A stretch of 45,366 nucleotides of DNA, the filler included, from Jimgerdemannia flammicorona (lineage: Eukaryota): the NCBI GenBank assembly GCA_003990765.1. It is 2 parts of 2 records of this genome, joined end to end, with 100 filler letters (N's around TTAATTAATTAA, not from the genome) between each part and the next. Parts side by side here need not be neighbours in the genome. Positions count along the whole stretch, not along the records: positions 1 to 22,637 come from RBNJ01001236.1; 1 more part is not named here. One strand, given 5' to 3'. A program made the position numbers and the translations under genes. Below the pieces are notes generated by a model, which searched no databases, had not been told where the DNA came from, and worked only from the letters and a program-made list of their open reading frames with translations. This document shows, one piece after another, positions 1,629 through 39,586 of this stretch; within the stretch, counting starts at the first letter, position 1; each line of letters starts with the position of its first letter.

Positions 1629-2099
1629 TCAGTAGCAAGGGGCAGCCCAAGCCACAAGAGTCCAGAATGGGTGGGGCAGGCAGAGGGAGTGTGCAAAATT
1701 TGCAGCCCTCCACTAGCAGCATAGGGGCAGCCCCAAGCCACTAAGAAGTCCAGGGCAGAGGGTGCTTCTAGCAGTCGGAGGGTGCTTCTGGCAGTCGGAG
1801 AGTACTTCTGGTGGTCAGAGGGTATTTCTGGTAGTTGAAGTCCACCACAGATTTGGGCCCCATTGCTAGTTCAGGTCCCACAGGCACCCTGGCCCTGCAC
1901 CACAGCACCGTACCAGCGGTACTGCAGAGCAGGGCCAAGGGACCAGTAGGGCCCTGCATAATAGCTAAGCTAGTACTACAGAAGAGGTGCCTGACCCAAC
2001 TCCCTACATAAGACTGCCCAACCCACACAAAATGACTGCCTAACCCTCACAAAAGACTGCCTATCCCTTGCAAAAGATTGCCTAACCCTCACAAAAACT

Positions 2100-4170
2100 G
2101 CTCCACCCACCAGTCCTAGGCCTTGATGAGCCTATCATCTATTATGAGTGCAACAACTGTTATATCCTAGCTCTCCTCAAAGGTGATAGTACTGTGGTGG
2201 TTGTGTGGTTGGAAGAGGACAGCCATATTAGCCACAAATGGGACTCTGAAACCATAGGTGAGGTTATACCAGACTCCGCCACTATCCTCCCAGGTTGGGC
2301 CCTTCTTTTCCAGAATGTAAAACATTACCGAGGTAATATTGTTGTCTGTGTATGTGGGCAGAGAAAGGTTGCACACAATATATCCTGATGTGATGCAAGT
2401 GTATGATTGGGTGAACCCTTGGCCCAGAATCTCATACTACTAGGCTGTGCTGATAGATGTCTGCCCTTAGTCTAGCCCCAGGAGCCCCGGCTTGGAAACC
2501 TGCCAAAACAAACAGCAACCAGTCAGTCCTTTTTGCATACAGGGGGGCAGAAACCCCCCAGGCCACAGAAACCCCCCAGACTGCAGAAACCCCCCAGGCC
2601 ACAGAAACTCCCCAGGCTGCAGCACCCCAAAAAAGCAGAGCTCCTCACCTCATATGGCACACTAAATTGTACCAAGAATGTACATATAGCTATGCTGAGA
2701 TCACCACCAAGCTGGTCTGCTGTACACTCTACCAATCTGCTCAAAGAACCCCAGATCATAGCTGCTATCACTACACAGACCATGTTGTGCTCACATGCAG
2801 TTTGCTCTTCAATGGCACTTCTAAAGTTCTGGTAGGAGTACAGAATCTTATGTATCCCTAGATTTGTATCAAAAAGAGTATGTCAGTAAAGAGTGTGATT
2901 TATCTGGGGAGGAGTAAAAAAAAAGAGAGATAAGTGTAGAGGATTTCAGAACTCTGGAACCCACTCTTCACCAGTATTGCAGTATACTTAATTTCTATCC
3001 AAACCCCCCCTCCTTGCTTTTTTCACCCCCTCTTTTCTGCCACCTGATATTTGATACAATCCTCACAAATCTTGTTGATGTGGTGGTGAAGCTTGTTGCC
3101 CTAGAGGTTCCTTACCATCATCACAACTATCTCTCTACATTCATTAATAAAGATATGGTTCTCTTCATCATTGATTACTCCTGCTGGCCAATGGACCCCT
3201 TGGTCGAGAATGATTGGCTCTGATTTGAATATAGACCCCCAAGCCTTAATGATGATGCTAGTACTGCTCATGCTGAACATCTTACCCTTGAATTTCTCTA
3301 TTTAATCAGATGCCAGATATGGTTAAACTCAGGTAACTTTGAACTCTCCTTTCCAATGGAACTGAGCCCTGATCTAAGAGACTGAGATAAGTGTATAGAT
3401 GGGTTACATGTGGACAGGTTGCATGCAGACAGATTGCATGTAGATGGGTTGCATGCAGGTGAGTTGTATGCAGGTGAGTTATATGCAGGTATGGGTGTTT
3501 TTTAGAGGGAGACCATGTAAAAAATGAAATTAAATAAAATACAGAGATGGGTATTTCAGAAAAAGAGCATGAGTGAGTGAGTGAGTGAGCTGTATACCAA
3601 TGAGTTGCATACTGACAAGTTGCACAAGTTACACAAGATTGCTCACAAAGGCTTACTTCTGTTCCTTTTGAGACCTCTGCCATGCAATGCATTGACTCAA
3701 TGGCTCAGTCACTAAAGGCATGCCCTGCAATGTCCTTCAACCTTTCTTCATCTTGACCAGATATTGCAAATAAAGTCAGCAGATCTCGCCATAGAGCTGT
3801 GGACCCTAAGAAGAGCACGAGGTGAATCAGGTCATACTGGGGGAATTTAAACAAGTAAAAAGTAGCAGCAGAAAAAAGCAACCTACATCTACTATCAGCT
3901 GCTCCAAAAAAACTACCACATATATAGCTATGAGGTCTGTGAATTCCTAGGTCCAAAGGGCCATCATGAGTTGTTGCCAGAATTCACCCTCATCTCTGCC
4001 ATCACCATTACCATCACCATTACCATTGCTATTGCCATTGCCACTGCTATCACCCCTTTGGCTCTCGATGAGCAGCTTGTGTGCTGCCCATATAATAACA
4101 TTGTCAGCAGAGAGTGCATTTCTACCTTGAATACTCTCTTTTTTGATGATCATTGCAGGGTGAAAAATGA
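2100..4170 (-). pseudogene. Multi-exon 2OG-Fe(II) dioxygenase pseudogene, TET/JBP-like
   Basis: The catalytic exon (2499 downward) reads ...SYTCITSGYIVCNLSLPT[Y]TDNNITSVMFYI...DSGGVWYNLTYGFRVPFVANMAVLFQPHNHHSTITFEES*DITVVALII. This fits the N-x5-H-x-D...GG...H double-stranded beta-helix pattern if TAC (2350-2352) is a C>T-mutated CAC. Intron 2500-2648 (GTGAGG...CTGAC...CAG) joins exons in phase 0. Further phase-compatible exons lie at ~2649-2857, ~3045-3220 and ~3287-3374. The extent above ~3400 is less certain. Confidence 0.6.
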
Positions 4171-4359
4171 GTAGACTGGACCAATGTATGAATTAAGGAC
4201 TGCTGTTTTGTTTGCTCTTGATGTGGTAGAAAAGAACAAAGAAAAAGAACAAAGAAAAGAGAGAGAACAAAGGAAAGAGTGATGTCACCAAAGTACAGCA
4301 GGAAAAAAAAAACAAGAGTGAAATGAACAAAAGAAAGAGTGATGTCACCAAAGATTTCA

Positions 4360-4486
4360 ATTCAGATGGATCAATCCAGATCAATCCAGATCAGATCACA
4401 AGACCAATCTGAGTTGATTTGAATCCATCACATAATGAATCTGAATTGAATCTCATCTGGATCAACTCCATTCATTCAGAGTACTA
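4360..4486. mobile_element. Probable DNA-transposon end (terminus TAGTACTCT read inward) with GATC/GAATC subterminal repeats
   Basis: TTCATTCAGAGTACTA (to 4486) matches TTCATTTAAGAGTACTA (to 22984). Both are preceded by short decayed GATTCGAATC-like repeats. Confidence 0.4.
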
Positions 4487-4490
4487 TCAC

Positions 4491-4886
4491 TGATATAGAC
4501 AAAGAGCTATTTTCCAATCTCATTACTGAAGACTCTATTTATCATTCACTAAAAACTTGCTGGGGTATTGTATATTCTGAATAGCATTTGCAGATAGATA
4601 TAGATGGCATCAGGTGTAATGAAGGCTGATGTTAGAGGGTTGCTTTTTAGGGTAACTGTTACATAGTTCTGGAAGGGTTTTCTGGAAGTTCTGGATGTTC
4701 TGGAAGACCATTTTCTTATGGTCAAGATCAATTTCATATGGAGTACATCCTCTACACTTATTGATTTCAAGTTCAGGTTGACATCTCAACTAAAGTCCTT
4801 TTTCGAACTAGTTCTGGATGTTCAGGATTTTCTGTATTTCAGAAAGTTCAAGAAACTAAGACTAGCTTAGTTGAATTGGCGTATCA
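4491..4886. mobile_element. Probable solo LTR (396 bp)
   Basis: TGATA...TATCA inverted termini (TGATATA/CGTATCA, consistent with ancestral TGATACG) and LTR-like low-complexity TTCTGGAAG blocks. No clean TSD. Confidence 0.4.
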
Positions 4887-5340
4887 CTGCAGACAATACC
4901 CAATTAGGAAATTTCGTGATGGGGTTAGGAGTGGGACCTAACAAGGAGTGGATTTACTTAAGAGTGGTTTGTGGGTTATTAAATAGATTTATTCACTATT
5001 CATGATATTGCTATACTAGGGGTAGTAGTGTGAAGGGATATTATGGGGAAGTGTTCAGGAATGTTCTTGTGTGTTCGAGTCTGAGATTCTGAGGTCTGGG
5101 GGAGGGGGTACATATTTATACTAGTGAGGGGCTATCTAGACTATGCTGAATATAGATGTAGCACTAAGTACCTTACTGAGTTGGAATGTAGTCACATAGT
5201 ACAAGTGTGATCTGATATATCAAGAGATTGTCTGACTGCTGAGTCAGTTCACAGTCACATTGTACAAAGCTAATCTAACTATACTATGACTGCTAGGCTA
5301 TTTATAGATTTAGGTACTGTCTGGGTAGTCCTCGATGATA
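4882..5340 (-). mobile_element. 3' LTR (family B) of a minus-strand Gypsy element
   Basis: Termini TATCACTG / CGATGATA (decayed TGTCACCG inverted repeat). Minus-strand TATAAATA (~5113-5120) and AATAAA (~4989-4994). Confidence 0.5.
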
Positions 5341-6677
5341 TCACCATCAATTGCATCATCTCTGATGAAGTAGTCATCTAGGAAGAGTGGTTTGTGGATT
5401 ACTTCTCCTTGTTCACTGAGGTAATAATACATTGGAACTTTGTCTCCATCCCACAAGATGGCATCATCAGTCTTGTATGCTGGATAAGATGTTGGTGGGC
5501 AAAGGAGGGGTGCATCATTTTTGCTTTCATTGGTTTCACTATCTGCATACCTTCTATAGATTATAGCACTATAAGTTGCAGGGTTGTAGTAAGCTGGTGG
5601 CTGTAGTTCATGTCACTCATACTCAGGTAGTGGAGTAATTGGTTCAATCTCGAGGGTTGTCTGGATGTATAGGTTGTGTTCTTCAGTCTCTTCATTATAG
5701 TTGAAGTAATCAGGGGTGAATGCAGGTTGGTATTTGTGCCAGTGGTCATTGTCCCAATAAGTCTCATAGGCTGTTATGAATTGTTGTAAGTTCATCGGCA
5801 AGGTTGGTGGTGTGATCAGGGTTGGTAGTGATCCTTGACTTAAGGTCATGTCGGCATCAGAGAGATCATTGTCTTCTGCTTCATCTTCATTGAAGTGGAT
5901 TATATTGTAGATGTCCTTCATAGCATATCCGACTTGGGATATTTGCAGGATATGATCATTGGGGTGGGGGAAGGTTCTGTCTGTGGTTTCAATATACTCA
6001 AGGTACTTGTGGTTGAGTTCTTGTATTATGTCATTGATTTGGCCATAGGACAGGGTAGCAACCATTTCGGCTGTAGTAACTCAGAGGTGGAGAATAACAG
6101 TGCTATACTTATAGAAGAGTTCTCAATGTTTGCAGGCAATGAGCTTCTAGTGTTGAGACATCTAGGTAATGTCTGTATCATAGTGGTATTCGACCATGTC
6201 TTCCAGGAGGCAGCTGATCTGGTAGTAGCTTGAGATTTGTCTGATTCGGTGGGCCTCGCTAAGCATGTTCAGGGCATTCCATCAGGCTTCTACAAAGTAG
6301 AGGGGTGCTAGGCTATGGATATTCATGAGGGGCAGAGGGGGTGTGGCTCAGTTGACAATGGTATTCCAAATGTCAGCATGGATACAGTTATAGATCTCAG
6401 TGGTCATGTTTGTGTGTTGAAAGTTGTGGTTGTTGTTTGTTTTGGTTCTCTGTTTCGATGTGTCTTGGTGCTCAGTATATATGCATTTGGTTCTGATTGG
6501 TAAGGTTCCATTTGTATGAATCTTGTATTCTGTGACTTCATATTGACTCAGCTTTGTGCACTGTGACTTTGGTTGACTCAGCTTCATGATCAAGCAGGTG
6601 ATTTCCAGATTTGTTCAGAGGTTATGTGTGATTTCAGATGGTGACATATGATTTCAGTGGCTTGGAGGTTGTGCGCT
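5341..6677 (-). mobile_element. 3' internal part of a Gypsy element with an uncharacterised extra ORF (includes ORF 5613..6065) upstream of LTR B
   Basis: Coding-like frame with C>T stops, starting MTTEIYNCIHADIWNTIVN near 6408 and containing ...NLYIQTTLEIEPITPLPEY. No RT/IN/env motif is recognisable. Confidence 0.45.
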
Positions 6678-9600
6678 TACAGCTGATTTCTCACTGGCAT
6701 CTTGAGTGAGACCAATCTGATGGAAGCCTGAGAACAGATCCAAGATAGTGTAGTATTTGGCTTCACTTCCAAGGATGGTAAGGATTTCTTGAATATTTGA
6801 TAAGGGCTGTCTATCCTTCTTAGTGATTACATTGAGCTTCTTATAATTAATACAGAGTCTTGAAGTAAACTCTCCAGACTTGCTTCCTTTCTTCAGGACA
6901 AGAACAATAAGTGAAGCCCAGAGGCTGATAGCTTGCTTGATGATTCCAGCTTCTTCTATTTCCTTGAGTTCTGCTTGCAGCCATTCTCTGTAGGCAGATG
7001 GTATAGGTCTGGCTTTCTGGTAGATGGGCTTGGTATTACCAGTGTCAACTTCATAGTAATACTTGGGTTCTTAATTGTGGATGTCTCTGAAGTTTGTGGC
7101 AAGTACTTCTTTATTCTGGTGCAGGATCTTGAGAAGTTATTCCTCTAGGAGAAAGTTTTCTCCAATAGTATATGTATGTGTGCTTGTTCTGGTCCTTATC
7201 TTTTAGGTGCTCAAGTTTGGTAATCTTAGTGGCAGCATAGGCTCCTCTTCCAGTAGATCCAAAGCCTTGTTCTCCTCTCTTAGTCTTGATAAGTTCAATG
7301 GCTTCAGTGATCTTGAGCTTCTTGACTTCATAGATTAGCATCTGGCCAATCTTATCATACTTCTTGACTTCAAATGAGGTGGTGGAATTGTGATTCCTAA
7401 CTATGAGGAAGATCTTGCTAGTGTAATCAGGGTCAATTACTCCTTCTTCAACTGAGATTTTGCTTTTGGCCAGACTGCTCCTGGTCTTGATAATTCCAGT
7501 ATTGTTCTCTGGCAACTTGACTTCAATTCTAGTGCCAAGTAGAGTAGTGGTCTGTGGTTCAAGAATAGTATTTTGAATGCTGGCAAGGTCCATTTCTATG
7601 GCTCCTTCAGTCTTGTATTCTGAGATCTTGGCTTCAGAGTGAAACTTCTTAACCTTGAGGGTAATGTCTGGTTCTTGTTCCTCCTCATCATCACTGTTAG
7701 CTTGAAGCTCTGGGGGCTGGTCATCTTCTTTAGCTTCCCTTTTTGCTTCAGCAGCTTCTTGATCATACTTTTGTTAGTGGATTTTCTAACTTCACTAATA
7801 TAGGACCAGCAGTCATTCAGGTGTTCAGAGCAGTACATCCTAGCCATGGGGGCATCTTCCTTAGAGGATATAGCTATCAATGATCTTGTTATACTACTGC
7901 TTATCTGTGAGCTTGAGTGTCTTGCTCTTATTCTTATATACCAAGTACATGAAGACTTCTGTGTCTTCTTCATCTCCTTCCTCTATATCTGATAGTACTC
8001 CTTTACAGACATTAATAGAGACTTGTATCATTCTTTCTTTATAGTTGATCTGTATCTTCTAAGCATTGAGATCAATAATAGTCTTGGCCTTGTGAAGCCA
8101 TTAGTTGCCAATGAGGATGTCATAGTTGGTGGCACTTGTAACAATCACATCTACTGAGATGGTAGCTCCTCTTATCTTGATGGAGACTTCTCAGATTTTG
8201 CCTAGAGGAGTAGCTCATATACCATCTGCTGTAATATAGACCATCTTAGTAATCTCTTCAATGTCCTAGCCTAGGCAGTCAATTGTCTTCTTGCTTATGA
8301 GACATCTTCTAGTACTGGTATCAATGATAATATTTAAGATACAATCTTCAATCTGACATAGAGTATAGACTGATATCTTTGTACTGGTCTTCTGTATTGT
8401 AAGCTTCTAAAATCTTATACTCTTGATTCTTAGCTGTAGTTGCAAGTTCTACTCTCAACTGCTGTCTGAAGGCAGAGACTTCAGCTAGTTGTCCAAAAGT
8501 AGCATTGACCTTCTGTTCCTTAAGGTCTTTATAGATATCATATTAGTAGATCTTAGTCTTGTACAACTTCTGTCCTTCTTATTTTCACTTTCTCCTAAGA
8601 CTGGAGTAGTGCCTTCAATGATTTGACAGGTAGCTTCATCTAACTCCATATCTTGATCAATCTCCTTAGGTTGGGTCTAACTTTGAATAGTGATAGCTAG
8701 AGTCTTTTTTAGTCTTCAAACTAGCTTATTATTGCCCTTCTTGTTATAGGGCTTGGACTGAGTTCTGGCATCTTTAGTAACAGGGTAGAATTCAAACTCC
8801 TTATAGTATTCTTCATCATTAGTATTACCAATCTCCTCAATGACTACTACATTGGTTTGTTCTCTGGTTCTGATAACATTGCTGGGTTGGGCCTTGCATC
8901 TTGTTTCAGTTATGTAACTCTTTGCATAGTGGTCTTCTTCTCCATATCTGAAGCATATGATATTGCATTCTTCTGTAGTAACTGTAAATCTCTGTACTAG
9001 TCTCTTATTAGTGCTTCAGACTTCTCTAACAATATTATCAAGATATACAGTTATCTTGGCAAACTGCTTGGTGAGTTCCTTCACTAGATCAGCTTTAGCT
9101 ATCTTAGAGATGGTGGGGATAGTTGTCTATTTACAACTGTGGCAGATATGATACTGGTTGGCTTTGGTGGTTCTATCTTGATACCAGATATTTCTCTATT
9201 GAGTGTTTGGCAGGGTGTCTAGCAGTTCAATATTTCTATGCAAAGACTACTTCCTGATCAAGGGTCAGAGCAGCTGGGGTAGATCAGATTGCTAGGGAAA
9301 TTTCAGAGTGAACTTTTTGGAGAAAGATTGAATCTGCTATTTATTTCTTAAGAGTATCATCATAGCCAGCCAAGACAATCTAGTGGTAGATTTGGGTGTA
9401 GAATGAGTTGAGATCTTTACTGAGTTCCTGGCAAATAGTATTAAGTTAATCCTTAAGAGCCTGCTTAATCTCTTCAGTATAGTATGTAGTTCTGAGGAAG
9501 GTCTTCATATTGATAAGTTTGACTGCACCAGTATCAGCAATAGTGGCTATATTGAACTTATCTCTGGTAGGTCCTCTGAGACTAATAAGTAAAAGAACTA

Positions 9601-9780
9601 ATTGTACATCTACACCAAGGGCTTGTATGGTGGCAAATTGTTCAAAGTCTTCAATAAAGATCAGGATTGACTCTTCAGTAGTATATTCATAGAATATAAG
9701 AGGATGTATTTCTATCTTGTCTTGAATTCTTGTAGGGGTGACTCTTATAGTCAGAGTAGTTATTGTGGTGGTTATTTGTT
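6678..9780 (-). pseudogene. Ty3/Gypsy gag-pol relic: gag, CCHC knuckle, protease, dUTPase, N-terminal RT (truncated)
   Basis: Knuckle CFR[Y]GEE[D]HYAKS[Y] (~8915-8960). Protease IIDT[S]... (~8310-8330) and DILIGN*WL (~8095-8125). RT: WLQAELKEIEEAGII...WASLIVLV.KK...RLCINYKKLN...LDLFSGFHQI...EKSA, breaking off at ~6678 before YxDD. Confidence 0.9.
7249..7655 (-). pseudogene. dut: Retrotransposon-encoded trimeric dUTPase domain (between protease and RT)
   Basis: Motifs EGAIEMDL, TRSSLA, GVIDPDYT[S], DKIGQM and RGEQGFGSTG in and just upstream of ORF 7111..7593. Confidence 0.93.
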
Positions 9781-9814
9781 TTTTAGCTTAAAAGTGAGGG
9801 ATTTGTCTTGAATC

Positions 9815-9832
9815 ACCAGCCAATGGGCACCA
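9815..9832 (-). promoter_or_regulatory. Primer-binding-site-like sequence (TGGTGCCCATTGGCTGG)
   Basis: Begins with TGG three bases after the LTR-terminal ...GTGACA on the minus strand. The cognate tRNA cannot be assigned by eye. Confidence 0.65.
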
Positions 9833-9835
9833 AGT

Positions 9836-10550
9836 TGTCACATAGTGGTCACTGAGTTCTTCAAATATGTCAGATTCTCTCCAAGGTATATCTCTTAGAC
9901 TAACTATAAGTTTGTTATAAGCAAGTTCTTATTGGAGTGCCTTCCTAAGGTCTTATAGTCCTCAAACTTCTTATCTTTAAACTGTCTTGTTATCTTTTAA
10001 ATTACTTACATGGAATTGAGAGTAAGTGAACTGGAACTGACTTTATTTCAAAGGAAATAAGAGGGGTATTTATACAAAATATAATTTAATGATTGCTAAG
10101 TTATAAAGCTAAATATAAATTCCAATAACTAAATAAAATACTAGAATACAGAAAACTACAGTTGTCTATACAAGTAGTTGTACAAGTTTAAGATATCAGT
10201 AAAATTTCAGTAGTATAGAAAAAGAATACCAGAAGATTTTCAAGTTACACAAGATCAGAATATCAAAAGAATTATAGTTACACAGAAAAAAATACTGGTA
10301 GAATCTGGTATTACCAAGAACTTAAAGCAGAAGGTTCAGAACTATGAGAGCTTCATCTTTATTACTATCAAGGCCAGAGGTTGGAGATAGAATATCTTCA
10401 AAGAAGATGAGGTCTGCAAATATTTTATCTGTCTTGTTATATAGGTTGTACATTTCACATATGTCATATAGGATAATATTATTGCTGATGATGTCATCAT
10501 GTTTGATGGTGGGGAGAACAAGGAGATCTGGGGCTCTCCAATCTATGACA
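9836..10550 (-). mobile_element. LTR (family A, 715 bp)
   Basis: TGTCA...TGACA termini and minus-strand TATA-like ATAAATA (~10067-10073). Followed by a PBS and preceded by the purine tract AGAAGAGAA (10551-10559) on the minus strand. Confidence 0.8.
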
Positions 10551-11420
10551 TTCTCTTCTAAAAAATAAGGAACAAATGTAGAGTCTTGGAGAGGTCTAAT
10601 CTGGATGCTGGGGCCTTAGAATGCTGAGATCAATCCTTGTATAAATTGATCTGGATTGTTCTGAAGAATGGAATACCAGAAGTCTCCTACTTCATCACTA
10701 TTGAGAGTGATAGTTAACTGGACTTCAGTGGCCACTATGGCCTCCAGTGCATTGGTATGGTGAGCTGATAGTTCCTTGAAGTCTGAGATCCTAGTGTACT
10801 CTAAGTTGGAGATTGACCATGGTATATACTGGAAGATCTGATGAATCTTCTTTACTGTTCTTATTTTATATATATTTATAGAGATGGTATCTTGAATCTC
10901 CTGAGGACTGGCCTGAGAGAACTCTCAGCAGAAAAGATTTCTTATTTTATACTCCTGCTATATCCAAAGGTATTTGGTAGCAATGGTGATCCTTGTTTCC
11001 ATTTTATAGTAATAGAGAATATAATGATAGGGGTCACCAGTACCCAGGTTGATGCTAGGAGTTCTTCTTGTGTAGGTCTCCATGGCTCTTCTGATGTCTT
11101 AAAATATTCTTTTCTGGACTGAGGGGCCTTGATAGTTCCTGGACCTTGAGGTTTGGCAAGCAGCAGATATTTTGTTTGTGGTAAGTCTTTAGAATTATTC
11201 TTGTGAGCTTTGTTTGGATTACTACTACTGTGGTTTCTTGATCCTTCTTTTATATTCCCCAAGATGTCTGTCTTGTGGTCACAATAACTCATAGTTGGTC
11301 ATCATTGCTCATCTTGTAGCTTGGATGAGTCATGCTATATAATCTTCTTGTACTCCAATCTAGTAGCTTATAAGGAAAGACTGTCTCCTATACTGATATC
11401 ATCATTCTGAGATCACTATT
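10551..11420 (-). mobile_element. 3' end (PPT plus decayed extra ORF) of an upstream Gypsy copy sharing LTR A
   Basis: T-run plus AGAAGAGAA directly before LTR A. Coding-like but stop-riddled frames (e.g. ORF 10942..11292). Confidence 0.5.
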
Positions 11421-11889
11421 ACAATAGATTGGCTTGAGCTCTCAGTTACTTTGTCAAAAAGTAATAAAATATTCAATTGATTTCTAAAAGTATAAGTTTT
11501 CTTATTTGATAATATAGATAATTTTGATTGTTTTTTAATAAATGTAGATTCTATATAATATAGTAATTTGGTAAATTTCTCTAAGTTCTTCAGACTTTAT
11601 CCAGCAAGCAGACCAAAATATGATAGATATCTCAAAGTTCTTAAGACTTAATCTAGTAAGTAAACCAAAATTAACAGACTTCTTTATATCAGAAAGTAGA
11701 CTGAAGTAGAAAAGGAAATAAAGCTCACAATCTCCTTAATAATAACTTTAAAGTGGGGATTTCTTCTAAGTATTATAATTATTTCCTTATATCAAGCAGT
11801 ATATCTCTTAAAGATATTATAGACAGACTTGTCTTTTGTTTTTTCTTTGACTTTTTAGACTAAGATTTATTCACTTGAATCCTTGGGGT

Positions 11890-12177
11890 ATTTTATATAA
11901 GTATGGTTACTATCTGGTTATTATTTGAATAATTATAGAATATATAGTAAGACTAATTTAGGAAAGGTATGACTACTTGTTCTCTTGGGAGATGAGTATT
12001 TCTTATAGAATAGATATTTCTATATAAAACAAATATTCCTTCAGAGATCAGTATATCCTGATTTAATACATCTGATTATTTATATAAATTGGTGGTACAT
12101 GTGATAACTATGTGGGGTAACTATGCTAAGTGTACTTTGTACATCATCTGGCTATACTATAGTATTCACTTGTCACA
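11890..12177 (+). repeat. Old LTR 3' end, homologous to 29244-29543
   Basis: Shared blocks TATTTTATAT..GTTA(C/T)TATCT(G/A)GTTATTAT, TAGTAAGACTAATT, ATTTATA(T/C)AAATTG..GTACAT, ATAACTAT and terminal T(G/A)TCACA. Confidence 0.7.
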
Positions 12178-21798: not shown

Positions 21799-22637
21799 AT
21801 GATACCCACATTAGGCTCCAATATATTGAATCTTGCTTCCAATTTTGAACGCAATATAGCAATTGAGCTCGTTTTATTCTTTCTCTAGTCTTTCTTTTCT
21901 ATTTGTACTAAATACCACGCCTTTGTCTATTTGCTGCACCGCATGGTACTGGTACTGAATGCTGTAAAAGTTTTTGTTTTGCATATGATACATTGAATAT
22001 TTGTAGCAAATAAATAGTTATGATCAAAACATAAGCTAGATCTTGAAATAAATATCAAAAAAAAAAAAAAAAAAAAACTTCAGACCCATTTTGCCTATCC
22101 TATCCTATCCAACGCAGCTGATCCGACAGTTCAATCCGCGGACAGTCAAGCGTTCCAACGCGACATTACCCGTCGTTGCCAAAGGTGAACGGGTTTGGGC
22201 GTTTCACAGGCCACATGTCGATCACATCATTATTAAATCTTCACAGCACGGTTCAGGTGTAATACGAAATGACAAACATTGCATCTTTATCAATACCGCA
22301 AAACGCATAAACGAATACAGAATATACTAGAGCAATTGAATGATGTAGTCGCCATCTCTGATCCGACCATTCATTGGCGTTGCGCTACGGAAGGTCAAGG
22401 GGGTAAATCGTCAGGGACTTAAACTGCAGGAAATGTGTGTTTTAACATCCGGGGCGTTTGTCGCAGGGACGCTTAGGTATTGCACGACCTCGTTTCAATT
22501 TGCCATAAAAGTCAGCACAAGAAATTACATTGAACACATACAAGTTTTCTTCATCCTTTCCCCCAATATTTCAGCTTGGCGAGTAATGGGCCCAACTTTG
22601 CTCGTACAGATTCAGAGAAAGTCCCCCTTCTCCCCCC

Positions 22638-22737
22638 NNNNNNNNNNNNNNNNNNNNNNNNNNNNNNNNNNNNNNNNNNNNTTAATTAATTAANNNNNNN
22701 NNNNNNNNNNNNNNNNNNNNNNNNNNNNNNNNNNNNN
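22638..22737. other. Assembly spacer: 44 N + TTAATTAATTAA + 44 N
   Basis: A six-frame-stop linker embedded in Ns, 100 bp in total. Confidence 0.97.
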
Positions 22738-22869
22738 AATATATTAACTTTATTAATATATATATAAATTTAATAGTCTTTATCATGTTATATTCTTCTA
22801 TATAAGACAAATCTAATAGCTAATAATCATTAAATTTGGATATATTTTTGTTGAGATATTATATTCTAA

Positions 22870-22984
22870 AAATAGAGTTCAAATTAGACCCTTGATTTGA
22901 TTCAAATTTGATTCAAATTTATTCAAATTGAAAAATCCCCAATTTAATTCAATTTAAATTGATTTGATTCATTTAAGAGTACTA
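22870..22984. mobile_element. Probable DNA-transposon end, same family as 4360-4486
   Basis: GATTTGATTCAAATTT repeats ending in AGAGTACTA. Confidence 0.4.
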
Positions 22985-23082
22985 GTTATATGGTTACTAT
23001 TTGTGTCTTTTTTTAAAAATTATTTGATATATAATTCTATTACAAAATACTTCCTTTTTTTACTTAAATAAAGCTCAGCTTA

Positions 23083-23485
23083 TGTAATATTTTACCAAAG
23101 TTTATTTCTTTTCTTTGTCTTTCTTCAATATTCTACAACCTTCCAGTACTTTCCAAATGCTTAGAAATCCTTTCTTGGTACTGAGCATCCTCTAGTACTT
23201 ATTTAGCTAGTCACTGAACATCCTGGAAACTTGTAGAACTTTATTTATCATCATTTGTCATCTTTGCCAAGAACTTTTCTCTTGGCATTTTCCTTTGATT
23301 TCTCAGATCCTTCCAGATCCTTCTTTCAGATCTTGTATTAATATCCCCTTTGTTCTCATGAATAAAGTCTCAGAATATTTTCTCTCAGAAATCCTTCAAG
23401 AATACTTAAATTCTTTGTATCTCTTTGAGCTACTTAGGACTACCAGAATTAGTTGCTTCCTCATTTAGAAACTAGAACCATTATA
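23083..23485 (+). repeat. 5' LTR
   Basis: TGTAA...TTATA (decayed TTACA), AATAAA at ~23361, about 93% identical to the 3' LTR by manual count. Confidence 0.97.
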
Positions 23486-23487
23486 CT

Positions 23488-23500
23488 TGGTAGCAGCAGT
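23488..23500 (+). promoter_or_regulatory. PBS, initiator tRNA-Met type (TGGTAGCAGCAGT)
   Basis: Lies 2 nt after the 5' LTR. TGGTAGC is complementary to the ...GCUACCA end of eukaryotic tRNA-iMet. Confidence 0.8.
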
Positions 23501-24597
23501 TAAGTTACACCTAGCCTTATTAAGACACCTCTCAAGATATCAGTCTCAACACTATGGAGGACAATAGGTGGAACCCTTCATATAGTACCTACGGTCCAGG
23601 CAATGTCTCATACAATCAGTATAATCAGCAAGAAGAAGAGGAACAGCAAAACCCTACTCAGTCGAATGGGGCCATTGAGAGTCTTTTGCAGACTACACTA
23701 GCTCAGATTGCTCAACTTCAAGAATGCATAGAAAGAAAGGAAAGCAAGGCCTCCACTTACACCTCCACATCTCTACCAACATCAATATATCTGACAGCAG
23801 TCACTATCAAGCCTCAGAAGCCCGATACCTTTGATGGTCAAAGAGGAGGACTGTCTACCAATGCCTGGCTTTTCCAATTAGAGCAATATAAAGAACTGAT
23901 CAATTTGGAAAAAGCAACACTAGTCCAATTTGCCGCCACACTCTCCTGAGGGAATGCTGCAATCTGGTGGCAAAATTATATCCAGAATACCAGATTCTCT
24001 GGTCAAATCAAGACTTGGGGCAAATTCTCTGATGCTATTTAAGGCCAATTCAAACCAGTCAACAGCACCAAGGCCATGTGAGACTGTCTGGCAAATGTCA
24101 AACAACTCAAGTCTATGTAAGCATACAATGTACAATTCCTGTCAATCCTGCTAGAATTACCACATGTTACTGAAGATGAGAAGGTCAACAAGTACATCTG
24201 AGGCCTGAAAGGTCAAACCCAAGTTTGTATCGAACTAGAAGAACCCAAGGACCTAGATATAGCAATGAAAATTGCTGATAGGTTTAATGTCATTACCTAT
24301 GGTCACTGCTTTGAACAGAAGAGACCACCTTTTAACAACAACAACAACCACCACAGAAGGGAGGAACCCAAAGTCAGAACTGTGGGATCTGCCTCCATGG
24401 ACCTAGACACCATTGACAAGAGCAAGAAAGGCAAGCTTACACCCAAGGAAAAGGAGCATCTCAAGAAGGCTAGAGCCTACTTCTTTTACCATCAGCCTGG
24501 TCACATTGCAACCAAATGTCCCAAGAAAACTGCCAAACCAAAGAGGATCCTGGTCCTGTCTAAAGACACTCAAGGTCAACCAGTTGAACAAGAAGTT

Positions 24598-25007
24598 GTA
24601 CTCAATTTCATGTGAGTTAACCCTAAGGCCCAGATCCCTCAAGCACAGTCAGAAGGAGCCATTGGTTTAGACCTTCAAGCAGTACAACAAGTTACTATCC
24701 CTGCACATGAAAGAAGGCTCATTCTAACTGGCCTTTCAATCGAAATCCCCAAAGAATATTATGCAAGAATTGCACCAAGATCTGGCCTCAGTTTTAAGCA
24801 CTCATTGGATGTTGGTGCTGGAGTCATTGACTCTGACTTCTGAGATGAAATGCAAGTCCTACTAGTTAACCATAAGAATCAACCATACACTGTCAATGAA
24901 GGAGACAGAATTGCACAGCTCATTCTGGAGTGAGCCACCCTACCAGTCATCAAAGAAGTCACCAAGCTGTCTTCCACCAAGCGAGATCAGAAAGGTTTGG
25001 CAGCACT
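24598..25007 (+). pseudogene. dut: dUTPase domain between gag zinc knuckle and protease
   Basis: In frame with gag: EGAIGLDL, IAPRSGLS (24778-24786 = RSG), AGVIDSDF*, GDRIAQL, KRDQKG(F)GST with a 1-nt deletion. Confidence 0.93.
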
Positions 25008-28000
25008 GATAAAGTTGCAAGCATAGCTAAGAACTGAGCCAATTAAATGCTCATTTTCAAAGGCCTAGTCAAGGAACAAGAGCTAGATATTCTCATAGAC
25101 AGTAGAGCTGTTGGGAACTTCATCAACAAGAACCTCATCGCCAAGCTCAAGATTCTCACCAAACTAGCCAGCAAGAATGGTGGAGTTGTCACTACAGATG
25201 GTACCATCTTACCAATTGACTCAATTGCTGCTAAACTTCCCCTTAAGATCCAGAAGTACTGAGAATGTTTAGATTTCGAGGTAGCACCACTAGGAGACCA
25301 TGACCTGATCCTAGGCAAACTCTGGCTTACATGGCACAACCCTCAGATTGATTGGACCAAGAATGAAGTCACCTTGATTCAGGATGGAGCCAACATTACC
25401 ATCAAGTCAGACAAGACTCAGACGAGAACCCCAATTGCAACCCTTTCAGCAATTCAGTTCAAGAAGGCCCTCAAGAAAGCTACCTGTGCCTTTGTGGTAC
25501 TGATCTGATCAAAGAAAGAAGACAAGAAGCTATTGATTAGTGAAAGCATCAAGTTACTGCTGAACAAGTATAAGGATGTCTTCCCAGACAAACTACCTGG
25601 TCTACCACCTTCAAGAGACCATGACCATGAAATTAAGTTGGTACCAGATGCAGCTATACCTAAGAAGAAAATGTACTGCATGTCTCTACTTAAAATTGAA
25701 GCAGTCAAGAAGGAACTCAATGAACTCATTGAGTGAGGAGCCATTCAGCCAAGCAAGTCACCCTTTGGTTCCCCAGTCCTATTTGTCAAGAAAAAGGATG
25801 ATACTTTGCGAATGTGCATAGACTACCATACACTCAACAAGATCATAGTCAAGAACCATTATCTGCTACCACTCATAGATCAAATCTTTGATGCCCTCAA
25901 GAATGCCAAGTACTTCACCAAGATTGATCTCACCTCTGGATATCACCAAATTCGAATCAAGCCAGAAGACATACCCAAGACTGCCTTCATGACACCCTTT
26001 GGACTCTATGAATTTCTAGTCATGGCCTTTGGTCTCACCAATACATCAGCAATCTTTCAAGACCTCATGCAAACCATCTTCAAGGACCAGCTCTATATCT
26101 TTGTACTTGTATACATTGATGACATCCTGATCTTCAGTGGTACTGAAGAAGAACACCTCAAGCACATTGAACAAGTCCTCAAGATCCTCTGCAAGAACAA
26201 GCTCTATGCAAAGCTCAAGAAATGTAAATTTTTCAAGGATCAAGTCAAATACCTTGGACACATTGTATCAGCCAAAGGAATTCAAGTAGACCCAAGGAAA
26301 ATACAAGCCATTGAACAGTGGTCTGTATCAGCAAACCTCACTGAACTCAGGTCCTTCCTTGGTCTGGCTGGATACTACTGTCAATTTGTCAAGAACTTCT
26401 CTAGTATTGCAGAATCTTTGACAAATCTCCTGTGAAAGGAACCCAACTCTGACCTCTATGTCCCCTACATCTGGAATGCCTTCTGTCAACAAGCTTTTCA
26501 AGAACTCAAGAACTACCTGACTCATGTACCTGTCCTTAGAAACATGGACCCAAACTTGAAGTTCATGGTTACTACAGATACATCTAACTTTGTCATTGGT
26601 GCAGTCATTTTTCAAGATGATGGTCAAGAACACTGACCTATTACCTTTGAGTCAAGAAAATTGTCCCCAGCAGAACAAAAGCTGGCTACTCACGAAAAGG
26701 AACTCCTGGCAATCATGCATGCCCTCAAGACCTGGTGATACTATCTAGAAGGAGTTGAGTTTGATATGATCACCAATCACAGGTTCCTTCAGTATATCAA
26801 CACTCAACCAACCCTTTCTTACCAACAAGCCAAATGGAGCCAACTACTTCAGACCTTTACCCCAAACATCATCTACAAGCCTGGCAAAACTCTAGTTGTA
26901 CCAGATGCACTTTCAAGAAAACCTGACCTCGCCATGATTTTACAAGTCACTGTGGCACCTGAATTCCTCAACTAGATCAAGAAGGTATATGAACAAGACT
27001 CTCTGGTTCTACAAAGGAATACCAAGGAATTCAAGGAAAAGTACACTATCAAGGATAACCTCATATACTATTAAGACAAAGTATATATTCCTGCCAACCC
27101 CGAACTACAGTACAAGATTCTTCATGAACATCATAACTCTCCACTAGCTGGTTACCTTAGAACTGAGAAGGTTATCAAGAATATCCAATGAGACTACTAC
27201 TGGCCAAATATGCTCAAGAAAATCAAGAAGTATGTCCAAAGCTGCAATCTCTGCCAAAGAAACAAGTCAAGCAATCAAGTACCTGCCAGTCTTCTACAAC
27301 CCTTGTCAATTCTGATCAAGAAGTTCAAACAAGTCACAATGGACTTCATTGTACAACTCCCATAAACCAAAACAGGCTATGATGCCTTTTTTGTGTTTGT
27401 GGACCATCTCACCAAGATTACAATCACCAAGTCAACCACAACCAATGCCACTGCCTCAGAAATTGCAAGAATCTTCTTCAAGACTGTCTTCTACCATTAT
27501 GGACTTCTCTGAGTAATTATCAGTGACCATGACCCCAAGTTCACAAGTTACTTCTGGTAAGTACTCTTTAAGACCCTTGAAACCCAAATTGCTATATCCA
27601 CTGCCTTCCATCCTCAAACTGATAGACAGATAGAGCAAATGAACAGAACACTTGAACAAATGCTCAGAAACTATGTGTCTTATGAGCAAGATAATTGGGA
27701 CTACTATCTGACCTATGCTGAGTTTGCCTACAATAATGTCAACCAATCATCAACTGGCCTTTCTCCATTTCAGCTACTTCATAGTCAAAACCCTAAGACC
27801 TCTATGAGCCTAGTCCAATTCTAGCAATCCAGTCACACACAAGTCCCCACAGCCCAGAACCTTATCGACAAAATGGACTCTCTTCTCAAGATCACCACTA
27901 TAAACCTGCAAAAGGCTCAGCAATATCAAGCTAAGTATATAGATAAGAAGTGACGAGATGTCATATATAACATTGGTGATATGGTTCTACTCAAAGCTGA

Positions 28001-28238
28001 CAATATCAAGACTCAATCTCAAGTCAACTGTCAGTTAGCCAAATTCCAGCCCAAGTACCTTGGACCCTTCGAGATCACTGAGCAAGTCTCTATCTGGTCT
28101 TACTATCTCAACTTGCCAACAACCATGCATATATATCCAGTATTCCATATGTCACAACTCAAGACCTGGAACCAGTCACCCCCATACCCTGGCCGAATTC
28201 TGACACTATCAGCACCAGTTATAGTTGAAGACCACATT

Positions 28239-28390
28239 GAGTATGAAGTTGAGAAAATCTTAGACAAGTAAGTCTGATACCGTCGCACAGAATACATAGT
28301 CAAGTAGATGGGTTACCCTAAATATGATGCTACCTGGGAACCTGCCACCAATCTCAAGAACTCCCAAGATCTCATCCAAGAGTTTGAGCA
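28239..28390 (+). other. Chromodomain at the integrase C-terminus
   Basis: EYEVEKILDK*V*YRRTEYIVK*MGYPKYDATWEPATNLKNSQDLIQEFE. Confidence 0.92.
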
Positions 28391-28706
28391 AAAAGGAACT
28401 CATTGACTGCCCATGAGATTCTCTCCTTGGATAGTAGATGACCTACTATGCTGATCAGGCACATTACACATTGAGGCTCTCTAAGGGATACAGCATCAGA
28501 AGCAGGAGATATAGGAGAACTCTATAAATCCTGCAACCAATGAGGTTTGAACCAGTTCTCATCTGATCAAGATGATACTTTGGCCCTCACCTTATACAAG
28601 GATGGCCAATCCTTGCCAATGAGTTGGTATATTTAATTTGAAGTTTCTTTTAGTCTTATTGTTTATTATGTGTAACTTTGAGAATTCAACAAGGACATTG
28701 ATTCTT

Positions 28707-28719
28707 AAGGAGGGGGAGA
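28707..28719 (+). promoter_or_regulatory. Polypurine tract
   Basis: AAGGAGGGGGAGA immediately before the 3' LTR. Confidence 0.93.
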
Positions 28720-29122
28720 TGTAATATTTTAGTGTAGTTTATTTCTTTTCTTTGTCTTTCTTCAATATTCTACAATTTTCTGGTACTTTCCGAATGCTTA
28801 GAAATCCTTTCTTAGTACCGAGCATCCTCTAGTACTTATTTAGCTAGTCACTGAACATCCTGGAAACTTGTAGAACTTTATTTGTCATTATTTGTCATCT
28901 TTGCTGAGAACTTTCCTCTTGGCATTTTCCTTTGATTTCTCAGATCCTTCTGGATCCTTCTTTCAGATCTTGTATAAATATCCCCTTTGTTCTCATGAAT
29001 AAAGTCTCAGAATATTTTCTCTCAGAAATCTTTTGAGAACACTTGAATTCTTCGTATCTCTTTGAGCTACTTAGAACTATCAGAATTAGTCACTTCCTCA
29101 TTTAGAAACTAGAACCGTTATA
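28720..29122 (+). repeat. 3' LTR
   Basis: Same length as and colinear with the 5' LTR, followed by the TSD. Confidence 0.97.
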
Positions 29123-29127: not shown

Positions 29128-29543
29128 TTTTTTTCAGAAATCATTCAAGACTACTTAAACATATAAGTATCTCTTTGAGCTACTTTAGACTCTCTAGAAA
29201 CTTCTAGATTTAGCTACTTTCTCTTAAAGAAACTAGAACTAGATATTTTATATAGATATAGTTATTATCTAGTTATTATCTGTATAATTATAAAGTATGT
29301 AGTAAGACTAATTATAGAAGTTATGACCTCTCAATTCTTTGGAGAATAGTATATCATCAAAGTATAACATATCTGCTAGAAAAGCATTTTTACTAAAAAT
29401 AATATATATAAATATTGGGTGTTTAGATATTTATACAAATTGATAGTACATATAAATAACTATATTATATTTGTGATATATTACTGTTGTACTATAATGT
29501 TTACTCATCATACTACAATGTAGCCAATGACAACTATTATCAC
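29128..29543 (+). repeat. Remainder of an older LTR interrupted by the chromovirus
   Basis: 29128-29240 resembles the chromovirus LTR 3' third. 29244-29543 is homologous to 11890-12177. Confidence 0.7.
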
Positions 29544-29629: not shown

Positions 29630-32600
29630 GCCTACTTATGATTTACAGAGCAGTTCCATAGATCCAAAACATTCTGTCCTTGAGCAAAGCTGTCAGGTCT
29701 CTCTGATTTATCCTCTCCCCTAACCGAATAGACCTTCCTGCAGATGTGATCATAAATGGACCACATGCTGGCAGTATTTTGGTGCTGGCAGAAGAGAGAG
29801 TCATGGTCTCCCATGAATGAGTGGAAAGAGGCGTCGGTCCCTTCGAACGGACATCGTTTGCGCCAAAGTGCTGGCCCCACCATGCCAATAATGAGGGTGT
29901 CAGTCACTGATCTGAAATGTGATACCAATATCTTCTAGCGTATATTGGTGACAAGGGAGGTGCTGATCAAGGAAGGTGGCGAGTTTAATAGATGAGAGCA
30001 TCAATCTAGTTCACTTTGCAAAGGCACTGAGAATTTCACTGCCAACATCCTGAACAATAAGGATGCCAAGAAAATGAAATAAAGTACCATATGGTCCTCA
30101 TTCGCAGGCAACAGCCTACTTGCTTCGTGATGACTCATTTTTCTCGAAAGGTCTGTACAATTTCAACAAGAGATAGAATGTTTCACATGCGGGTCAGCAA
30201 AGGTGTCTTTTTCTAACTGTAAAGCATTCCACACTCAACACTCGCACTGCCCACCACATCTCTCCTTTATGCATAAAAGCGCATTTTTTGTATATCAATA
30301 AAGTGCCGCTCTTGAGAAAAACCAAATATTACAACAGCTATTAGTTCTGTCGGCGATCAATATTTCTTTTTGAGTAGGATCGTTTAAATCGGTTTTACAG
30401 ACTGGAAGATTCTTTGTTTTCCTTCCAAAGGAGCATATAAAATATGTGCAAAGGGCAATTATGGCAAATGACAATTATATCCCAATGACGCAACGCGTGA
30501 ACTGAGCGATGCTTGCCACTGACCACCAGGTAATCGCACTCCAGAGAACCAGCGTCCCATTCATATAACCAAGATAACATTTCAAGCGGACGCCATTAAT
30601 AAAATGGAATGAGGCCAATTCCTCAAACATGTCGGGCAAAGCCAGAACACGATAACTATCCATTGGTAGAGCTTTATTAAGAAAATATGCCACGTTCGGA
30701 TATCTTGAATCGCGCAGCGTCTGAACCTTGTTAGAAGGTTTCCCATACCATGGCAGAAAGGGTCTGTGTAATGTGAAGTAACCAAACAGCCGAGTGGATT
30801 TTATTATTAGATTTCCTGCGGGAAATTGTCACACGACTTATTGCTCCAGAAAACCCCTTATATAAATAGAATGGAAGAGGTCCATATAGGCCGAGTATAG
30901 GCAAACAGAGTCGCAGTTTCATTACAAAATTACATTGTCTCACACCTTCTCTAAGTGCGACGTGAATCTTGTATTCGTCGTCTCTTTTCAACAATAACTT
31001 GCCATCGCAGAGTTGCGACAGGTTCCCTCTTATGGTGTCAATGCTGGAATCGACCATTTCCGACGATGAACCAGTCAAATGAACAAAATATCGTACGAAC
31101 GCGAGCACCGATTCCGTGATTGGTCCCGTGAAAAGAGAACACATATACAGTAGCATGCGCTGCTGCGTTGGAAGCTTGTCGATTGTTGGTCGGAAACGGA
31201 ATTCGAATTTTCTACTTTCATATGAGCCATCTGTTAGCATTGCGTCGAAACGATCACGAACGATTTCTTTAAGTGATACATTTTGATGCTGTGGTTTGGT
31301 GGTGGCATGGCCAAGGAACTCCAAACATAGTGGATGCCCGTCTACGAGCCTGACGAGTTCGTGTAGCAACTGCGTCGCATTCGCTTCATTCTTCACCCTC
31401 TGCTTCACTTGAGCGTCAAGATTTCGAATGAACAATTCGACGCCACTCTCAATGTCGGAATCCGTCGGACCGTCGGAATCTGTAAAACCGTCGAGGTGCA
31501 TCTCTTCCTCCTCTGCTGTCCATTTCAAATGTTGATTCGATGTTGCGAGAATTCTTCCGAAACCAGTCTACCAACATTACGGCGCCCTCATCGCCTCTGA
31601 CTTGTGCACGCTTCAAGTTATCAGCTTGATCGAGGACCAGCAAACTTGTCCTTTGCGACTTAAATCTGTCGAAGATGGCCCGTTCCACCATGTGAAAGTC
31701 ATTGCCAAAATCTTCCTTGAACATAACCTGACTCAGGCCTTGGAGATATTTGATAACCGATATCTCGCGCGAAGGATCGAATTGCCAAGCGAAGATCCCA
31801 CCGGGGAAGAGATGCGCCATCCGCCTGACTGCCTTCTCAGCCAACGCCGTTTTTCCCTGACCAGCAATACCTTCAATGATGTACATGGGACAGGTCTGTG
31901 TCCCTCTCTCCGCCATACGCCTCAAAACGCGGGTTATCTCGATAAGCTCCTCCTTGCGTCCGCAAAAAAATCGCGTGAAAGAAATGTCTTGAAGGTTGTT
32001 GCGGGGCACACGGGATTCGATTGTGGGCCTTCCCTCCACGCACTTGAACGCGCCATCCTCTTCCCGAAACGTGGATGAGTAGAGCATAATGGCACCGGGG
32101 AAGTAGTCGTGTTGTCTGATGTCTTTTGGGTCTTTCATGGAGGCGCGCGCCTCCAACATCGCTGCTTCGACCGTGCAGCCACCGGAAAGGCACAGGTAGA
32201 ATTTGCATTCGAACTTGCGGGCAAGGTCGTCTGGCAGGGGAGAGTATGAGCCAATGGTGTATAGAACGCCGTGCTCAGCCAGGTCTCGGGCGACACTGCG
32301 AGTATTGCAGGCAGAGAGAAATGCCAGTCGTAGGTTCTTGGCGATGGTGTCGAGGCGCAACGCGTCAACGTCAACGAAGTGGGGTTTTCCTGTGTCATGA
32401 TCTTCAAAGATGAGGGCCCTCACACCGCCTTTTTGCGAGTCGCAGTGTCCCATGAAATGAAGCACCGTGGCCATCTCAGGCTTGCCACTGAGCAACTCGT
32501 ACATTTGGTCGACGGTCGGCGGGAACACACGCTGCATCAATACCGCTCGATTGTTTTTCTCATACGCATCACATAATGTTTGAAATTGATCGCTCAGATG

Positions 32601-33137: not shown

Positions 33138-33573
33138 CTTTGACAAGGATATTATCATATTTGTGAGAGTGTGTGTGTGTAGGTGTGTCTTCTCTCTGTT
33201 CACTCTGAGCGTTCATGTGGAGGTGAATATACCCGGATTCCTGGGGTTCGTATCACAAACCGGGTTTGACCCGAAAAGGACAGACCCGGCGAATCGGTTT
33301 AACAACCTTCAAACTATGGGTAAGACAAAGGGAACCGCCTATTCGATTTATCCCTTTCATCATTTCCTGTACCTCCCAACATATCGACACACCAACATGC
33401 CACCGCCATGGCCGTACCAATCTTTGGGGTCCCTCATGATCATTTCCGCCCACCCTCATCAGCACGGCCTTTATCGGTATTTAAGATAATCGTTCAACCC
33501 CTAACCTCGACCATCATCCAAAATATTTCTTCAAGCCAACAAAACCTACGATCCCCCGAGATACGACATGACC

Positions 33574-39550: not shown

Positions 39551-39586
39551 CAACAACATTATTTTTGGAGAAAAGAGACTAGCAAC

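Follow-up and report, generated by a model that had tools for sequence, protein, structure and literature searches.

The minus strand of positions 2089–3280 in a 45,366-nucleotide stretch of DNA from Jimgerdemannia flammicorona (assembly GCA_003990765.1), hereafter the window, carries a three-exon pseudogene whose third exon holds the remains of an HxD...H metal triad, and we consider here its relation to the TET/JBP-like dioxygenases carried by fungal transposons. This is the supported extent of the gene, rather than the 2100–4486 proposed by an earlier interpretation of the letters (the sequence-only reading), which had seen there a transposon-embedded TET/JBP-like dioxygenase gene killed by cytosine mutation. 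A minus-strand frame at 2167–2436 (89 amino acids) contains, letter for letter, the motifs quoted in that interpretation. We read the window as eukaryotic, with CpG-normal gene blocks alternating with repeat blocks that are nearly free of CpG, and the pseudogene is located in the first of the repeat blocks (Table 1).

A phmmer search with the 89-residue piece against 1.84 billion representative proteins returned seven matches at E ≤1e-3, five of them true relatives: P0001 (E 3e-38, 71% identity), P0002 (1.8e-18), P0004, P0005 and P0006, with P0005 (374 amino acids) the sole full-length relative among these matches. P0003, a CHU_C secretion protein, and P0007 were rejected as repetitive proteins matched over many short stretches. 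A word-indexed protein search added P0008, and a metagenome scan contributed two further loci, L001, which is intact, and L002. The family is unannotated and tiny, with no sequence match in Pfam, NCBIfam, PHROGs or PDB; the word-indexed protein searches recovered only P0005, P0008 and P0001, the scans of viral contigs and genome contigs yielded zero relatives, and tblastn of P0005 against phages gave chance matches only (E 7–9). The open reading frames (ORFs) flanking L001 had no Pfam match. Residue counts given below refer to six relatives, and the count of Arg spacing to five.

Projected onto the window with tblastn, P0001 aligned to 2490..2095 across five in-frame stops, and P0005 aligned in three colinear pieces, residues 92–167 to 3187..2963, residues 167–227 to 2858..2649 and residues 239–343 to 2490..2173. 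Joining the three exons gave a spliced model of 936 nt, in frame, with seven premature stops and zero frameshifts, which matched P0005 residues 91–343 in one local alignment (68 of 244 positions identical). The spliced minus-strand gene with phase-matched introns described by the sequence-only reading is real, because the intact L001 gene is interrupted at the same two places and in the same phases, 1 and 0 (phases read by eye). Its 5′ exons reaching to ~4190 did not stand, with the ORFs at 3708–3983 and 3950–4192 failing to match the family profile (hhalign probability ≤0.13%), P0005 residues 1–91 finding no tblastn match upstream of exon 1 in the window, and 3281–4486 giving no Pfam match in any of the six read-through frames. 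Nor was a gene beginning ~300 bp inside an element end at 4486 borne out, since a reach into 4190–4486 could not be demonstrated.

Table 1. Features of the pseudogene and of the window around it (CpG o/e, observed-to-expected ratio of CpG).
Feature	Position	Strand	Remarks
Exon 1, as far as homology supports	2965..3280	-	tblastn P0005 residues 92-167 -> 3187..2963, E 6.7e-07
Intron 1	2858..2964	-	107 nt, GTGGGT..TAG, phase 1; L001 intron at same position and phase
Exon 2, helical insert region	2649..2857	-	tblastn P0005 residues 167-227; stop-free
Intron 2	2500..2648	-	149 nt, GTGAGG..CAG, phase 0; L001 intron at same position
Exon 3, catalytic	2089..2499	-	tblastn P0001 70.5% identity over 132 aa, E 1e-59; P0002 E 1e-27
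TGC (Cys)	2371..2373	-	Arg in 4/6 relatives; 8 residues before HxD His
Decayed HxD metal motif, TAC-ACA-GAC (Tyr-Thr-Asp)	2344..2352	-	His-x-Asp in relatives
Distal metal His and Ser, CAC-AGT	2191..2196	-	H-G-(S/T) in 6/6 relatives; His retained in window copy
Upstream non-coding part of same repeat unit	3281..4486	-	several short tandem arrays; no homology to gene family
Proposed element end TAGTACTCT	4478..4486	-	weakly supported candidate
Gene blocks, CpG-normal	12-22.5 kb, 30-36 kb		CpG o/e 0.71-1.1
Repeat blocks, CpG nearly erased	1-12 kb, 22.5-30 kb, 36-45 kb		CpG o/e 0.0-0.29

Homology within exon 1 begins at 3187, with a possible start ATG at 3278–3280, and the exon contains two premature stops, TAG at 3101–3103 and TGA at 3023–3025. 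Exon 3 holds the other five, TAA at 2467–2469 and TAG at 2440–2442, 2437–2439, 2167–2169 and 2116–2118, ahead of the terminal TGA at 2089–2091, and intron 2 includes an 18-bp tandem repeat. Downstream of the pseudogene, 500–2101 is occupied, up to the stop codon, by dense short tandem arrays with periods of 12–72 bp.

The relatives present a 2-His-1-carboxylate triad, with the first His in all six, the Asp in five (Asn in P0004) and the distal His in all six at a spacing of 50–52 residues; in P0005 the triad, conserved across the relatives, consists of H283, D285 and H335. The window copy itself has Tyr (TAC, 2350–2352) in place of the first metal His, Ser (AGT, 2191–2193) at a position that is Gly in 6/6 relatives, and Cys (TGC, 2371–2373) at a position occupied by Arg in most relatives, by His in P0001 and by Cys in P0006; a GRC motif is found in P0002, P0004, P0005, P0008 and L001. 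The sequence-only reading had predicted that three single transitions, TGC from CGC, TAC from CAC and AGT from GGT, would restore the catalytic residues, and the relatives carry the predicted Arg (4/6), His (6/6) and Gly (6/6), with no relative lacking His at the TAC position. The sequence-only reading was largely right in what it observed, and at the level of residues its prediction was accurate. In addition, three of the five premature stops in exon 3 fall at Trp, Gln and Trp positions of P0001, each one transition from TAG.

To follow the copy number and the decay of the unit, we placed contigs of the soil-metagenome run X1 (word share 0.05) on 1900–4600 at ≥80% identity. A total of 674 contigs covered all 30 bins, with the introns and the upstream non-coding DNA covered like the exons, and their identities were widely spread (72 contigs at ≥99%, 159 at 95–99%, 255 at 90–95% and 188 below 90%). 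As introns and non-coding DNA are covered by diverged contigs, the whole unit is a multi-copy repeat and not only a conserved coding sequence; the gene therefore lies within a multi-copy unit of at least 2.7 kb that comprises coding and non-coding parts alike.

Comparison with these contigs identified 246 variant places, 233 of which are transitions, and in 149 of these transitions the window has A/T and the contigs G/C. At position 2117, all 12 contigs carry C, so that the window TAG at 2116–2118 reads TGG as in P0001, and at positions 2331 and 2306 the contigs give Pro and Arg, the residues of the relatives. Point substitutions alone, C-to-T and G-to-A in their great majority, inactivated the copy: they created the seven premature stops, turned the His of the HxD motif into Tyr, and changed Arg to Cys and Gly to Ser, with no frameshift. 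The CpG-depleted block described earlier was confirmed, with a CpG o/e of 0.06 across 2100–4486 (0.85–1.1 in the gene blocks for comparison); all four NCG contexts are reduced to 0.04–0.13, the repeat blocks show an excess of TpG/CpA, and the unit shares its CpG erasure with the neighbouring repeats. The proposal that the gene was killed by cytosine mutation is accordingly supported, and the last hits on this copy are mostly outside CpG: among the 37 best-supported window-private transitions, 15 are CpA-to-TpA, 14 CpC-to-TpC and 5 at CpT, and only 3 are at CpG. The CpGs were presumably lost earlier, across the family as a whole.

The other subfamily shows a like decay: L002 has two stops and an Arg-to-Cys change at the GRC motif, P0004 has HxN, and P0006 is truncated. 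L001 and L002, on contigs from different samples, are 99% identical over gene, introns and flanks, with 28 of 2715 aligned bases differing, 23 of these by transition, of which 13 at CpG. P0001 has His for the GRC Arg and Trp-Trp near the C-terminus where P0002 has Arg-Arg, and it may be partly decayed itself, because each change is one CpG transition from an Arg codon.

The ESM Atlas contains P0001 letter for letter, with a predicted model at a pLDDT (predicted local distance difference test) of 0.69. Ten structural rows were obtained for this model at TM (template modelling) scores of 0.54–0.63, in which all seven named or Pfam-bearing rows are 2-oxoglutarate (2OG)-Fe(II) oxygenases, and the rows include a basidiomycete cluster with 28% Tet_JBP members. 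In the feature comparison, P0001 shares 178 features with a cluster bearing the name 'Tet-like 2OG-Fe(II) oxygenase' (score 0.91), 72% of whose members carry PF20515, and it also lies near a PF12851 cluster (score 0.88), and the 30 Atlas clusters nearest to P0005 comprise 6 of PF20515, 12 of PF12851 and 12 with no family, at a top score of 0.96, such proximity consisting of language-model neighbours that serve as leads and carry no alignment statistic. These leads agree with the triad and its spacing of 50–52 residues. The assignment to TET/JBP-like dioxygenases made by the sequence-only reading is thus favoured by the HxD...H triad and the PF20515 and PF12851 neighbours, but it found no match to a profile hidden Markov model (HMM). 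Its placement in an early-diverging fungus is not supported by the Atlas labels, which are few and near P0001, the subfamily of the window, mostly Basidiomycota; the clusters near P0005, likewise with few labelled members, are mostly Basidiomycota, with one mostly Mucoromycota.

The PE-type TET/JBP-like enzymes of fungal DNA transposons and Helitrons are thought to oxidise methylated DNA bases, thereby countering methylation-based silencing. In the available part of the survey that classifies transposon-borne TET/JBP enzymes, the fungal enzymes are sorted into three types, PU in rusts (seven transposon lineages), AG in agarics (Kyakuja and Zisupton) and PE in Pezizomycetes and Agaricus (Helitron, IS3EU, Zisupton, EnSpm and Plavaka), and the PE type is described as very divergent, HHpred matching it to CMD1 at an e-value of 1.4 and to NgTET at 19, with CMD1 among its best structural relatives and, as its hallmark, HxE replacing HxD (PMC12730594).

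Compared by eye with the PE sequences in that part of the source, P0005, P0008 and L001 share the same motifs in the same order, QN.I.VD...E.V, (Y/V)SAG, LPR(M/L)D..G, the metal His, GG.F...DYG, N..V.(W/F), HGT(T/S) and G/S-L-S-x-x-T/V-x-x-R, and the domain spans ~250–290 amino acids in both groups. Along the block that runs without gaps between GG and HGTT, 13 of 33 residues are identical, again by eye, in L001 and Helitron-1_MoIm, a PE entry of Table S1. As far as the source describes, both groups are invisible to ordinary HMMs and both have no Arg just before the last strand, while the Arg found at +20/21 after the distal His in the relatives matches, by eye, the final Arg of the PE motif. 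The window family differs from the PE type in having spliceosomal introns, and its exact motifs are absent from the available text of the supplement (187,118 characters, including Table S1; PMC12730594).

The enzyme CcTet, by its description in the available part of PMC11040006, has an HxD...H triad (His326, Asp328 and His376) with the ~50-residue spacing of the window family, and the AG/CcTet and PU types (Kyakuja, Zisupton or Dileera; PF12851, PF20515) are the nearest named ESM Atlas clusters. The AG and PU types are, like the window family, multi-copy and repeat-associated under CpG methylation, but the window family has no HMM match to PF12851 or PF20515, and the PU sequences in the accessible Table S1 are, by eye, much less alike to it than the PE sequences. 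It also differs from CcTet in the absence of an Arg at +9, where CcTet has Arg385, and Gly331 and Asp337 of CcTet are unmatched, the window family having Val/Leu and Tyr at these positions by our own count. CMD1 of Chlamydomonas is a TET homologue, divergent but with the TET fold, in which ascorbate takes the place of 2OG; for the window family, the idea of another co-substrate comes solely from the missing Arg.

Taken together, these observations lead us to regard the window copy as a dead member of a small eukaryotic family, most likely fungal and so far unannotated, of Fe(II) double-stranded β-helix dioxygenases divergently related to the PE-type TET/JBP-like enzymes, a reading to which we give a probability of roughly 55%. 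Our best reading is of a new branch, with HxD, among the relatives of the PE-type transposon-borne enzymes. The intact protein would comprise ~310–375 amino acids, with iron held by His-x-Asp together with a distal His ~50 residues on, and the family would be a divergent relative of PE-type enzymes riding fungal DNA transposons and Helitrons. The intact enzyme might oxidise methylated DNA bases and so counter methylation-based silencing. The copy in the window was inactivated by C-to-T and G-to-A substitutions in a CpG-erased block.

Several observations weigh against this reading. Pfam at E up to 10 gave 0 families for the window exon, P0001, P0002, P0004 and P0005, NCBIfam and PHROGs gave nothing relevant for family members, and the profile and sequence searches of PDB gave nothing relevant or chance matches to antibody complementarity-determining regions. 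AlphaFold2 models built on alignments of 6–7 sequences reached a pLDDT of 37.3 with P0005 first and 37.9 with P0001 first, and because these models stand at only 37–38, the fold is drawn solely from the predicted models of the ESM Atlas. In TET enzymes, a 2OG salt-bridging Arg follows the distal His by 9–15 residues, and Arg385 of CcTet, nine residues past the distal His, binds 2OG and is reported to be strongly conserved across the superfamily (PMC11040006, in the part available); by contrast, none of the five relatives has an Arg at +9 to +15. The metal motif is HxD in five of the six relatives and HxN in one, in contrast to HxE in 8/8 PE rows of the accessible table, and the PE comparison as a whole was made by eye. 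On the side of mobility, no transposase of any class was detected in the window ORFs scanned (105 of the 143 of ≥80 amino acids), no Helitron Rep and no pair of terminal inverted repeats (TIRs) was found in the window, and L001 and L002 might represent two alleles instead of copies that have transposed.

Further searches on the same points were likewise empty. The read-through exons matched no Pfam family at E up to 0.01, so that no match to Tet_JBP or any other 2OG-Fe(II) profile HMM, as the TET/JBP assignment had led one to expect, was obtained from Pfam, NCBIfam or PHROGs. In the low-pLDDT AlphaFold2 models only a run of ~eight strands is visible, and Foldseek with the P0001-first model (pLDDT 37.9) against PDB gave no match at E ≤1e-3, the rows being unrelated. 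An Arg after the distal His is found in the relatives at +20/21 in four of five and at +28 in four of five.

The mobility of the unit bears directly on the first alternative, that the pseudogene, with no transposon as its carrier, is what is left of one member of an ordinary multigene family of the host and just happens to lie where repeats and methylation abound, an account that we consider possible but doubtful. In its favour, the window has no transposase, Rep or TIR pair, and the neighbours are unrelated retroelements (dUTPase, reverse transcriptase and protease at 6657–8367, minus strand). Six-frame read-through of 1–2100, 3281–5302 and 8000–12000 showed no transposase and no Rep, the only domains found in the ORF scan and the read-through together being RVT_1, dUTPase, aspartyl protease, SH3_Tf2-1 and CHAT/NACHT. 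Neither the scanned ORFs nor the read-through revealed a KDZ or Plavaka transposase domain in the vicinity of the gene.

The statistical weakness of the element end proposed at 4486 also speaks for a host family. The motif TAGTACTCT occurs twice in the window against 0.35 expected, a count reached in 4 of 100 shuffles, and its second copy at 22976–22984 is likewise preceded by TTGATTTGA(A/T)TC repeats. Local alignment of the 200-bp left flanks of the two copies (the second at 22785–22984) stops exactly at the motif, with a score of 20 against 12.5 ± 2.2 in shuffles (reached by 1 of 300), and unrelated AT-rich stretches reach 18; this weak look-alike, at 22892–22984, is the only one in the window. 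No inverted partner of the 4486 end was found in the window with up to 3 mismatches in 17 nt. With no such partner and a single weak recurrence, neither the DNA-transposon end at 4486 nor a TIR element could be confirmed. An inverted pair at 4479–4498 and 7981–8000 was rejected as an element boundary, a retroviral protease (~8043–8367) lying beyond it, and the TAGTACTCT copy at 22976–22984 was rejected as the start of a Gypsy long terminal repeat (LTR), which begins near 23078.

Against a host multigene family, hundreds of diverged contigs extend over the introns and over 1.2 kb of non-coding DNA upstream, which points to amplification of the whole unit and not of a selected coding sequence. 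The unit also shares the CpG erasure of the surrounding transposable elements, and decayed copies occur in the other subfamily too (L002, P0004 and P0006). The claim that the gene is embedded in a transposon thus keeps the multi-copy repeat and the likeness to PE enzymes by eye, and loses the transposase and the TIR pair. The unit may well extend leftwards out of the window, and a transposase or Rep could be located there; transposon carriage is plausible by analogy.

It is unlikely, in our estimate, that the pseudogene derives from a 2OG-Fe(II) oxygenase, prolyl-hydroxylase-like or of a similar kind, whose substrates were proteins or small molecules and which played no part in DNA modification. 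Generic 2OG-Fe(II) oxygenases share a similar predicted fold, with P4H, HIF-PHD and 2OG-FeII_Oxy_3/5 among the neighbours of P0001 at the same TM of 0.54–0.63 as the Tet_JBP-containing cluster, and such an origin would also be in keeping with the missing HMM match to Tet_JBP or PF20515 and the absence of the TET-type Arg at +9 to +15. However, by features other clusters lie nearer than these generic families, which also have no HMM match to the window family; for P0005 as for P0001, PF20515 and PF12851 are the only named families among the nearest clusters. Moreover, the colinear motifs fit the PE-type TET/JBP sequences of the accessible table and not the P4H signature, by eye, and the gene sits in a multi-copy unit with introns and flanks, as for transposon passenger genes. 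A chance ORF or composition artefact, for which one could cite the two repetitive proteins (P0003 and P0007) among the seven phmmer matches, is refuted by the E-values of 3e-38 and 1e-59 to P0001, the three colinear tblastn exons and the spliced model with its canonical splice sites and intron positions conserved with L001.

If the window family is a divergent relative of the PE-type enzymes, as we prefer, it would widen the TET/JBP picture by an HMM-invisible branch with HxD, introns and a different arrangement of the cofactor-binding Arg. Transposon-borne TET/JBP enzymes are the only 'anti-silencing' cargo so far proposed for fungal transposons. The phenomenon itself has already been described in other fungi: in the available parts of the sources, transposon-borne TET/JBP has been reported so far only from Pucciniomycetes, Agaricomycetes and Pezizomycetes (PMC12730594; PMC13297926), with a 2026 review listing transposon-encoded TET/JBP for Basidiomycota and Pezizomycetes only (PMC13297926). 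A literature search on JBP with Mucoromycota found, in the part of its results that was read, no report of such genes in early-diverging fungi, and neither PF20515 nor 2OG-FeII_Oxy_6 was mentioned in the literature searched. More tentatively, and with odds clearly on the low side, the family could represent a type of repeat-borne TET/JBP-like dioxygenase that has yet to be described, the fourth in number and sister to PE, which keeps HxD, has introns, has no canonical Arg, perhaps uses another co-substrate, and occurs in soil fungi beyond the three known classes, perhaps in Mucoromycota. Another co-substrate would be conceivable, as with ascorbate in CMD1, because the canonical 2OG-binding Arg is missing, and Mucoromycota might be included because one Atlas cluster near P0005 is mostly Mucoromycota. 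The intact homologues P0005 and L001 would offer a handle for testing the function of such enzymes. The window copy itself is no more than a fossil, showing how a cytosine-mutating host defence prevailed over a gene that had perhaps once worked against it.

Among the other features of the window, a decayed LTR-retroelement remnant on the minus strand at 5313–8367, to the right of 4486, is an unrelated neighbour of the pseudogene, with a reverse transcriptase at 6657–7070, a dUTPase at 7114–7773 (E 8.6e-23) and an aspartyl protease at ~8043–8367; no LTR pair was found for it. A Ty3/Gypsy-type LTR retrotransposon occupies 23078–29117 on the plus strand, CpG-depleted and with LTRs at 23082–23381 and 28719–29018 that are ~94% alike, and it encodes RVT_1 at 25737–26432 and SH3_Tf2-1 at 27954–28268. 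At 39500–45366 (plus strand), a CpG-depleted block whose GC skew is very strong (+0.3 to +0.5), and in which RVT_1 is matched weakly at 43037–43405, is probably a non-LTR retroelement. By contrast, a CpG-normal block contains, at 30734–33212 on the minus strand, a long open frame for a protein with a CHAT domain and NACHT/AAA that resembles nucleotide-binding leucine-rich repeat (NLR) proteins. Where a gene block meets a repeat block, ttaattaattaa stands between two runs of 45 N (22637–22681 and 22693–22737). Finally, a segment of ~225 bp is common to the right edges of two repeat blocks, at 11889–12111 and 29244–29463 (69% identity, E 8e-23), and looks like another repeat family flanking both blocks.

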